From IMG/VR virus record IMGVR_UViG_2529293240_000017: a stretch of 11,141 nucleotides of DNA; one strand, given 5' to 3'. The number at the start of each line of letters is the position of its first letter. Position 1 is the stretch's first letter. Source of the stretch: a virus. Taxonomy: Duplodnaviria; Heunggongvirae; Uroviricota; Caudoviricetes. This document shows, in pieces, positions 7,082 to 8,333 of this stretch. The notes below the pieces were generated by a model that saw nothing but the letters and a program-made list of their open reading frames with translations, did not search any database and had not been told where the DNA came from. Position numbers and translations under genes: made by a program.

Positions 7082-8053
7082 TTACCCAAGCACGCCAGTT
7101 GCAAAGGCGTGATCAAGAAAACGAAAAATTAAATCAACCTGAGAACCATGCTTTTCTTCGAACGCCAGAGGATCCGCATGAAGCTCGTTGTGATGCTCCC
7201 GACACAGCGGTAGCGTGAAAATATCGTGAGATTTTGTCCCCATTCCGCCCTGACCATGACCAATCAGGTGATGGGGATCGTCGGCTGGCTTACCACAACA
7301 CGCACACGGCTGTGTCTTCACCCAGCGTTTGTATTTCTCGTTAACCCAGCGGCGACGTTTAGGTCGTTTCATGAAAGATTCCGGAGACTCAGGATCAACG
7401 GCAATGCTGACCACCGTCTTTTCCTGTGGTGGGTTCTGTTGCTGGTGGGCGTGAGGCAGCGGCGCAAGATTTTTTGTGCGCTGTTTCAGTATGCTGGTGG
7501 CGGTCTGCTCTCCCGGTACGATGTCGCTTTCACGGTACATTGAGCGGATTTTTTCCGCACGCAACCCCAGCGAACGACGTAATACCGCTTCCGGTAGCGC
7601 GTCCGCCACCTGATTGCGGACCGCCCACCAGGATAATTCAGCTAGAGATAATTCACGCTCCTGCGTACCGCTTATTGCGTGACCGATGACGTCAATCATC
7701 CATGCTGACAGGTTTTGATGAGCAAGTTGCTCGAGTGATTCGGATGTCTGGTCACGCAGCTGGTTGTCGCAGTGCCAGCACAACACCATTGCGCCGGTAC
7801 CATAACGGTGAATGACGGTTTCGCTGTGATGATAATCGCCGTGTGGCCACTGGCAGGATTTAATATGGCGCAACAGCCAGTCAGACAATGCACCAGCACC
7901 ACCAGCAGCACGAATCACCCGTGCGTTACTGAAAAACGGCAGCAATGTTTTGTCTTCCACCAGCGGCTGGCGAGCGGCAGGAACGACCCCGGACGGCAGA
8001 TTACGCATGCTTTTCGGTTCCGGAACCAGAACAGGTCGAAGTAATACCCGCAC
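7082..8053 (-). CDS. DUF968-family prophage protein with C-terminal HNH-like nuclease motif (YdfU-like)
   Basis: 323-aa ORF from a GTG start. C-terminus CACCGKPADDPHHLIGHGQGG...CREHHNELH is an HNH-type motif. Occupies the ydfU position of the Qin gene order. Confidence 0.65.
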   Translation of the reverse strand: MRVLLRPVLVPEPKSMRNLPSGVVPAARQPLVEDKTLLPFFSNARVIRAAGGAGALSDWLLRHIKSCQWPHGDYHHSETVIHRYGTGAMVLCWHCDNQLRDQTSESLEQLAHQNLSAWMIDVIGHAISGTQERELSLAELSWWAVRNQVADALPEAVLRRSLGLRAEKIRSMYRESDIVPGEQTATSILKQRTKNLAPLPHAHQQQNPPQEKTVVSIAVDPESPESFMKRPKRRRWVNEKYKRWVKTQPCACCGKPADDPHHLIGHGQGGMGTKSHDIFTLPLCREHHNELHADPLAFEEKHGSQVDLIFRFLDHAFATGVLG

Positions 8054-8054
8054 G

Positions 8055-8333
8055 TTACCTCCAGATCCGTTGCTGGAATGTGCGGGACGGACGCGGTGGC
8101 TGTTCGGAGTAAGGGAGCCTGACGGAGATTATCCAGTGACGGTAGTCGAGGCTAAGGGCTTTTTTAACCTCGCATCCGCGCCTGCGGTAACACTGAATGA
8201 GCCATTCGGCCTGTTCTTCAGTGCATGAGGGATGCTGGTACCAGTCTGACTTAAATGCATGAGAATACCGCTCGTGCGTGTGGGCAAGAACGGTCGAATT
8301 ATCATGATTGTAATATTTTGCGTTGCGTGCCAT
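8055..8333 (-). CDS. hypothetical prophage protein, 92 aa
   Basis: ATG-initiated ORF whose stop lies 1 nt from the GTG start of the DUF968 gene. The C-terminal ~20 residues are Pro/Arg-rich and look non-native. Confidence 0.4.
   Translation of the reverse strand: MARNAKYYNHDNSTVLAHTHERYSHAFKSDWYQHPSCTEEQAEWLIQCYRRRGCEVKKALSLDYRHWIISVRLPYSEQPPRPSRTFQQRIWR

Follow-up and report, generated by a model that had tools for sequence, protein, structure and literature searches.

Two open reading frames on the minus strand of a tailed-phage sequence lie so close together that they raise a simple question. The sequence, a stretch of 11,141 nucleotides from the IMG/VR record IMGVR_UViG_2529293240_000017 (Caudoviricetes) that we call the window, contains an ORF of 92 codons followed, in a different frame, by a longer ORF with a DUF968 domain. 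Are these two genes that are coupled to one another? Or are they the remains of a single longer gene that has been disrupted by an indel? A sequence-only reading of the window had left both possibilities standing, and had regarded the last ~20 residues of the small protein as the product of out-of-frame translation.

The window represents a cryptic lambdoid prophage of Shigella/E. coli that resembles Qin and is riddled with insertion sequences. Its genes are ordered relB-relE-hokD-rem-[92 aa]-[DUF968]-rusA-Q on the minus strand, and the pair at 7082-8333 belongs to the nin-like early-right operon.

The locus and its distribution

The small gene occupies 8055..8333 on the minus strand, with an ATG start at 8333 and a TAA stop at 8055-8057. 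It is preceded by a ribosome binding region at 8334..8352 (minus strand), CCACCGGAGAAAACCG, in which GGAG lies 7 nt upstream of the ATG; this region is invariant between the window and three E. coli relatives (alignment columns 340-372). The DUF968/YdfU-type gene, which encodes a putative His-Me-finger (HNH) protein of 323 aa, follows at 7082..8053 on the same strand, with its GTG start at 8051-8053 and matches to Pfam DUF968 and phrog_96. The next gene of the same module is rusA (118 aa, 6713..7069, minus strand; Pfam RusA). A single base, 8054, separates the TAA of the small gene from the GTG of the DUF968 gene, which confirms the spacing and the coordinates that had been reported for the two ORFs.

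This arrangement is common. An identical small protein is listed, as a Shigella prophage protein, for at least 1000 contigs, and the same stretch of DNA is found in E. coli genomes at up to 98.6% identity. At least 80% of the stretch is covered in 3250 of 5426 complete genomes. In the E. coli relatives PGAP calls a 279-nt 'hypothetical protein', a gap of 1 base and a 1050-nt DUF968 gene (349 aa). The small ORF has not arisen by chance: it is conserved in E. coli and Shigella genomes by the thousand, and purifying selection acts on its own frame.

The small protein and its family

Residues 27-92 of the small protein (8058-8255, minus strand) form a conserved core of 66 aa that matches the phage protein family phrog_1212 over positions 1-66 of its 66-position profile (E 3.5e-35, 120.9 bits). 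Across 22 diverse members of the family, F, L, Y and W occupy the invariant columns. The family's conserved positions correspond in the window's protein to W31/Y32 (the WF near the start of the core), L45 and Y49 (an L and a Y in the helix) and W91 (the penultimate Trp), and these residues (WF, L, Y and penultimate W) are kept in the family at 30–40% identity. Members of phrog_1212 are ~65–68 aa in length and the window's protein, at 92 aa, lies outside this range, as a length variant of phrog_1212.

The additional length lies in an N-terminal extension of 26 residues (8256-8333, minus strand) that is lineage-specific, unconstrained and predicted to be disordered. A search of 5.8 billion clustered proteins identified 127 relatives of the small protein, of which the full-length ones are ~90–92 aa and five entries are longer (99–145 aa); the named sources are Escherichia or Shigella throughout. 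The extension is confined to these genera, plus one 92-aa relative at 46% identity. When the family profile was used against 1.84 billion (1.84e9) representative proteins there were 99 matches, typically of 65–68 aa, most of which reach the last profile position; the longest has 248 aa. The longer proteins that contain the domain (248, 161, 121 and 111 aa) were considered as informative fusions and set aside, as they are apparently chimeras or miscalled ORFs in which the partner (Rep_O, Baseplate_J) is unrelated.

Selection acts unevenly along the protein. Over 34 distinct alleles, the ORF as a whole has a pN/pS of 0.29, against 0.16 in the core and 1.27 in the N-terminal extension; these values, like all pN/pS ratios given here, combine pairs of closely related prophages that are not independent. 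The alignment of relatives also contains a two-codon indel within the N-terminal 26 residues. It seems that the extension is tolerated and provides the start codon. The AlphaFold2 model is in keeping with this division: the core is predicted with a pLDDT of ~85 as a beta-alpha-beta-beta arrangement (strand 29-33, helix 39-52, strand 55-60, strand 67-74), the tail is of lower confidence with a short terminal helix, and residues 4-24 are disordered.

The small protein is basic, with a pI of 9.5 (the median of the 66-aa relatives is 9.0). It had no match in Pfam, NCBIfam or PADLOC, and fold searches gave no informative match. A weak link through phrog_4916 to the C-terminus of NinG failed direct comparison. 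A database annotation on one phage record, 'toxin to Rem', was untraceable in the literature and has been given no weight.

In-frame coding of the C-terminal tail

The claim of out-of-frame translation concerned the end of the small protein, which reads ...LPYSEQPPRPSRTFQQRIWR. The tail PYSEQPPRPSRTFQQRIWR, taken with the L that precedes it (8058..8117, minus strand), proved instead to be in-frame coding sequence and the most conserved part of the protein. It contains the hallmark C-terminus of the family with its invariant penultimate Trp. Nearly every column of the tail is at least 90% conserved, and the best-conserved stretch of all is WIISVRLPYSERPPRPSRTFQQRIWR.

Two lines of evidence bear on the reading frame. 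The first is selection among the 34 distinct alleles, with pairs again pooled that are not independent: for residues 67-92 pN/pS is 0.12 in the ORF's own frame and 1.70 and 4.59 in the other frames, and for residues 73-92 it is 0.15 in its own frame and 2.74 and 3.90 in the others. The second is homology. Standalone 66-aa homologues in mEp237, Gifsy-1, phiES15 and PY54, which are 36–48% identical, align to the last residue, and the tail aligns likewise with the C-termini of 66-aa relatives from phages of Salmonella, Cronobacter, Yersinia and Klebsiella. At synonymous sites the tail has diverged less than the core (pS 0.21 against 0.34). By both selection and alignment the tail is evidently genuine, if Pro/Arg-rich, in-frame coding sequence.

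The DUF968 protein and its start

The downstream protein is matched by Pfam DUF968 (PF06147) over profile positions 1-171 of 171, with 256.2 bits against a cut-off of 27.8 (E 2.1e-76), and by phrog_96, 'HNH endonuclease', at E 6.6e-159. Its match to HNHc_6 is below threshold (22.5 vs 26.6 bits). The C-terminus contains the zinc-finger His-Me motif (CxxC ... HH ... CxxHH..H), present as CACCGKPADDPHHLIGHGQGGMGTKSHDIFTLPLCREHHNELH (CACCG...DDPHH...CREHHNELH), and can be aligned, at weak pairwise similarity (E 0.003), with the metal finger of YbcO, a family with a solved structure (PDB 3g27). DUF968 and DUF1364/YbcO make up group 7 of the His-Me-finger superfamily (PMC5714182). The beta-beta-alpha segment is modelled with a pLDDT of ~80, and the AlphaFold2 model of the 349-aa protein as a whole has a mean pLDDT of 45.9, which is too poor for use. 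In the literature that mentions ydfU or DUF968 we found no biochemical report on YdfU. Homology and superfamily membership thus support the suggestion, already made from the HNH motif, that the protein is probably a nuclease, with a C-terminal zinc-bound His-Me-finger (HNH) domain.

Where does this protein start? Its relatives are 348–352 aa in length, and PGAP, K-12 and gene-caller annotations all place their start at the equivalent GTG. In frame, pN/pS is 0.26–0.31 for the 40 codons that begin with the GTG. Within the window no earlier start was found in the DUF968 frame before a stop is reached. In SfV and mEp460 the DUF968 genes, which are 55% identical, align from residue 6; there they follow a KilA-N-type gene and have no small ORF upstream.

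One broken gene or two genes

These results bear directly on whether an ancestral gene of ~440 codons has been split by an indel, leaving the 92-aa ORF as an out-of-frame remnant of its N-terminus, that is, a pseudogene. It was for this possibility that an alignment with full-length DUF968 homologues had been proposed, and that alignment has now been done. If the N-termini of the homologues had matched the 92-aa ORF, a single gene would have been indicated; instead the homologues start at the position equivalent to 8053 and the 92-aa ORF is a separate, conserved gene.

Two observations had made the split-gene explanation worth considering, namely that the ORFs are 1 nt apart in different frames and that the tail is compositionally odd, with its many Pro and Arg residues. 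Against this, the split arrangement is universal in thousands of genomes and in relatives of 65–70% identity, and the tail, which standalone 66-aa phage proteins also have, evolves under strong purifying selection in its own frame. There is also a fused protein of 438 aa in the database (P0315). It is a singleton in a K-12-like assembly and is derived, because it was produced by a 13-nt deletion (CTGGAGGTAACGT). It is the only fusion to DUF968 that we found, with none among the 99 representative matches or the 127 close relatives. The 'long' DUF968 entries of 375 and 377 aa are gene-caller extensions into an unconstrained overlapping frame. We therefore give the split-gene explanation practically no credence. 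Of the two alternatives first put forward, the coupled pair stands and the indel-disrupted gene falls away. The two ORFs are very probably independent, coupled genes of the nin-like operon of a Qin-like prophage, one encoding a small phrog_1212 protein and the other a likely DUF968 nuclease.

The junction and probable translational coupling

The two genes meet in the sequence TGG AGG TAA C GTG (TGGAGGTAACGTG; 8051..8063, minus strand), in which the small gene's final two sense codons contain a Shine-Dalgarno sequence, GGAGG. Over 28 nt the junction is identical in 76 of 82 loci and has a single-base difference in 4 of 82; the remaining 2 of 82 have a premature stop in the small ORF, and their junction was left unread. 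The geometry of stop, 1 nt and GTG is found in all 34 distinct ORF alleles. The 1-nt gap is also kept in relatives of 65–70% identity, which have different upstream genes and lie beside three different families of Q antiterminator. In the 66-aa relatives the ending is mostly TGG GGN TGA NN ATG, with an SD-like run of G in the final codons and the start two bases on, and in phiES15 the gene has a 4-nt overlap with the downstream gene. A nearly invariant junction with the GGAGG inside the last codons is what translational coupling would lead one to expect.

The spacing between GGAGG and GTG is 4 nt. This is at the short end of the workable range in E. coli. A hairpin of 45 nt is predicted at 8044..8088 (minus strand), in which the SD and the GTG pair with the codons for SRTFQ in a stem that includes CCCGCAC/GTGCGGG, and which may be an occlusion element. 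It has an MFE of -17.8 kcal/mol and a z-score of -2.5, with 9 of 500 shuffled sequences folding as well. In a context of 120 nt the probability of being unpaired is 0.00–0.29 for the first four bases of the SD, 0.79 for the last, and 0.02–0.04 for the start codon. Of 13 junction variants, 10 are predicted to fold in the same way; the substitutions are one-sided, and none of the 13 has a compensatory pair. A 110-nt fold around the junction has no significant structure (z = -0.16), and in a 90-nt context the fold is likewise not significant.

From the junction and the predicted hairpin we infer that the two genes are translationally coupled. The Shine-Dalgarno sequence for DUF968 would be the one built into the terminal TGG AGG codons of the small gene. 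Together with the GTG it would be held in the local hairpin, which a ribosome finishing the small gene could open, and the DUF968 protein would then be made mainly when the small gene is translated.

Might the junction serve another purpose? DUF968 is read in the +1 frame with respect to the small ORF, and a programmed +1 frameshift at AGG-TAA-C, like that of prfB, could add a fusion of the small protein and DUF968 to the two separate products. The strong SD-like GGAGG at the stop, the rare AGG in the P site and the near invariance of the junction are all compatible with this, and a shift at the last codon needs no conservation of the +1 frame upstream, so that the pN/pS values do not conflict with it. 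However, the P-site codon is not slippery, since re-pairing from AGG to GGU is poor, and the SD abuts the stop with no spacer, whereas a prfB-like site has an SD-like element ~3 nt upstream. The conservation is explained by a canonical GTG start with its SD. The frame relation is also unconserved, as the offset differs in the 66-aa relatives (mostly two bases before the ATG, and the overlap in phiES15), and elsewhere the downstream nucleases are autonomous proteins. Frameshifting in addition to separate translation thus seems to us extremely improbable.

It might also be argued that the small ORF owes its conservation mainly to a role as leader, its translation bringing ribosomes to the nuclease start, and that its peptide is functionless. 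An SD is embedded in the terminal codons throughout the family, the lower pS of the tail suggests constraint at the nucleotide level, and the predicted hairpin covers both SD and start. A leader of this kind does not account for the purifying selection on amino acids across the whole 66-aa core (pN/pS 0.16), nor for the persistence of the family residues at 30–40% identity and the confident fold of the core. In PY54 the protein, including its terminal Trp, is kept even though the next gene is 48 nt away. We consider it very unlikely that the peptide is functionless, and retain the reading of two independent genes that are probably coupled in translation.

Neighbouring nucleases and a possible role

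The genes that follow members of this family are suggestive. At 76 IMG/VR loci of the 66-aa type, which are not independent of one another, the gene directly downstream is NinG in 53 and YbcO in 16. At 5 of the 76 it encodes a Cys-rich protein of 141–143 aa, one of which matched phrog_10082. At the Escherichia-type loci the downstream gene is DUF968 in all. NinG, YbcO and DUF968 are all His-Me fingers (PMC5714182). Our best guess is that the small protein is an optional nucleic-acid-binding or accessory partner of a phage module of recombination or branch-processing nucleases, because its relatives are found directly upstream of, and coupled to, the genes for DUF968, YbcO/DUF1364 and NinG/Rap.

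The conserved synteny of the nin region could by itself explain the association, because the loci cannot be counted as independent, the nucleases are also found where the small gene is absent and the neighbour in PY54 differs. DUF968 is present without the small gene in SfV and mEp460, and NinG of lambda and YbcO of DLP12 presumably lack it as well. In PY54 the gene that lies 48 nt from the small gene is not a nuclease. A stronger proposal is that the phrog_1212 protein serves the His-Me-finger recombination nucleases of phages as a dedicated partner, whether by regulating or inhibiting them or as a DNA-targeting subunit, and is co-translated with DUF968, YbcO or NinG ahead of rusA/Q, with the C-terminal PRPSRTFQQRIW as a docking motif. 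We regard this as doubtful. If it were true, the nin region of lambdoid phages would contain a two-component nuclease module that has gone unrecognised.

Lesions in this copy of the prophage

The DUF968 gene in the window is 26 codons shorter than in its relatives, a difference that the sequence-only reading had missed. At 8017..8023 (minus strand) there is one remaining copy of a 7-bp direct repeat, CCGGAAC, that marks the junction of a 78-bp in-frame deletion. The deletion removes residues 12-37 of the 349-aa protein (alignment columns 678-755). In the closest relative (L004, 99.6% identical) both copies of CCGGAAC and the intervening 78 bp are present, and the codons may have been lost by slippage between the two repeats. 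The deleted region is under purifying selection elsewhere (pN/pS 0.30, from pooled pairs as above). The 323-aa allele is the only one of its kind among 84 loci, the exact protein is on only 2 contigs in a collection of 15 billion proteins, and an exact-match search of species-representative genomes with the deletion junction gave no match.

Other genes of the module have been damaged as well. The rem gene is frameshifted in a run of T at ~8612-8620, rusA is 6 codons short (118 aa, vs 124 aa in relatives) through a change of GAA to TAA at alignment column ~2065, which puts its stop at 6713-6715, and copies of IS2 and of the IS3 family surround the locus. Together the DUF968 deletion, the rem frameshift, the rusA truncation and the IS copies are ordinary prophage decay. 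The 78-bp deletion and the rem frameshift could also be assembly errors.

The main result is an ordinary one, in that there is no hidden frameshifted gene at this junction and the real lesions are elsewhere. The pair already has annotations, as a hypothetical protein and a DUF968 protein, in Escherichia and Shigella genomes that number in the thousands, and the small protein already belongs to a PHROG family. Two points are of use beyond this prophage. The reference sequence of K-12 MG1655 has no annotation for a gene of 92 codons that is conserved and under selection. Further, the steady coupling of phrog_1212 to three families of His-Me-finger nuclease gives a minor lead, cheap to test, to what the small protein does.

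Comparison with known systems

As a junction, the locus resembles classical coupled gene pairs in having a stop and a start 1 nt apart, an SD within the final codons of the gene upstream, and a start codon that is predicted to be base-paired. It differs from them in that coupling here is predicted, with modest structural support (z = -2.5, no covariation).

The closest counterpart is ydfU (b1560) in the Qin prophage of E. coli K-12, which shares the order relB-relE-hokD-rem-small ORF-ydfU-Q and the TGGAGGTAACGTG junction. The K-12 small protein is 86% identical to that of the window, and the DUF968 proteins are closely related, although YdfU has 349 aa and the window's allele is without residues 12-37. 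Unlike the window, K-12 has no rusA between ydfU and Q, and its rem is intact. In the MG1655 RefSeq sequence the small ORF is intact between rem and ydfU.

YbcO (DUF1364, PDB 3g27) and NinG/Rap of lambda are His-Me-finger nucleases of the nin region that are found just before rusA and/or Q, the place taken by DUF968 here. DUF968/YdfU is far longer than YbcO, with ~250 further N-terminal residues, and for YdfU the nuclease role is predicted from its sequence.

The 66-aa proteins of phrog_1212 from lambdoid and N15-like phages (STM2620.1n of Gifsy-1, mEp237_051, phiES15_017, ORF47 of PY54 and QD1 of N15) have the same core and the same C-terminal ending as the window's protein. Their genes occupy the same place in the nin region and, with the exception of PY54, lie directly before a recombination nuclease gene and are tightly coupled to it. 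The Escherichia/Shigella protein differs in its extra N-terminal extension of 24–26 residues and in its last residue, Arg (TGG AGG) in place of the Gly (TGG GGN) with which the 66-aa proteins end. It differs also in its partner, since the Escherichia/Shigella gene is paired with DUF968 and those of the 66-aa relatives with NinG or YbcO.

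The small open reading frame in K-12 and as a fusion

An intact, conserved copy of the 92-aa small ORF lies in the interval between rem and ydfU of K-12 MG1655 (NC_000913.3 1644306–1644584, which is 2807–3085 on the minus strand of L003, the compared K-12 stretch). The K-12 MG1655 RefSeq record has no feature at this ORF, which carries a PGAP annotation in strains other than K-12 MG1655. Fusion of the small ORF with ydfU was found only in the K-12-like assembly GCA_903976945.1. There, the deletion of 13 nt (CTGGAGGTAACGT) joins the two into a single ORF of 438 aa (1501–2817 of locus L178).

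Only the Escherichia/Shigella lineage has the N-terminal extension of the small protein (residues 1–26; 8256–8333, minus strand). This segment, predicted as disordered, has a pN/pS of 1.27 and contains a 2-codon indel by which alleles differ. The small ORF has no other in-frame start closer to the conserved core. Among the standalone 66-aa relatives of this core in other phages, five loci (L161, L170, L173, L174, and L176) have, immediately after the 66-aa gene and in place of NinG or YbcO, a gene for a Cys-rich protein of 141–143 aa; one of these five proteins matches phrog_10082.

Lesions in DUF968, rem and rusA

The DUF968 gene (7082–8053, minus strand) contains a 78-bp in-frame deletion at 8017–8023, flanked by two CCGGAAC direct repeats, through which residues 12–37 of the 349-aa protein have been lost. 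No second case of this deletion was present among 84 related loci, and the exact sequence of the resulting 323-aa protein was found in only 2 contigs.

On the same strand, rem (8400–8650) is split by a frameshift near 8612–8620, where one T is missing from a T6 run, leaving ORFs of 41 aa and 65 aa; E. coli relatives have an intact 83-aa Rem. In rusA (6713–7069, minus strand) a GAA to TAA change creates an early stop at 6713–6715. The window RusA is thus 118 aa, six codons short of the 124 aa of the two closest E. coli relatives, and the early stop has removed the overlap with the start of Q that is present in relatives.

Features surrounding the gene cluster

Between hokD and rem there is a strong intrinsic-terminator-like hairpin (8781–8798, minus strand; AACCCGC-TTCG-GCGGGTT followed by a T-run). 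Because of its position, rem, the small ORF, DUF968, rusA, and Q would require antitermination or a separate promoter to be expressed from upstream.

In the outer regions of the window (1–3300 and 9822–11141), two IS2 copies, at 1181–2434 (minus strand) and 9888–11141 (plus strand), are 100% identical inverted repeats on either side of the prophage remnant. In addition, window 1–856 duplicates 2178–3096, comprising an IS2 end and an IS3-family element, which indicates that the IS insertions are nested or tandem.

Downstream of Q on the minus strand are an Rfam match to the STnc100 sRNA (4594–4783, 132 bits) and two tRNA genes, Arg-TCT and one with a CAT anticodon (5480–5556 and 5658–5733). In relatives, a tRNA-Ile is annotated downstream of Q at the equivalent position.
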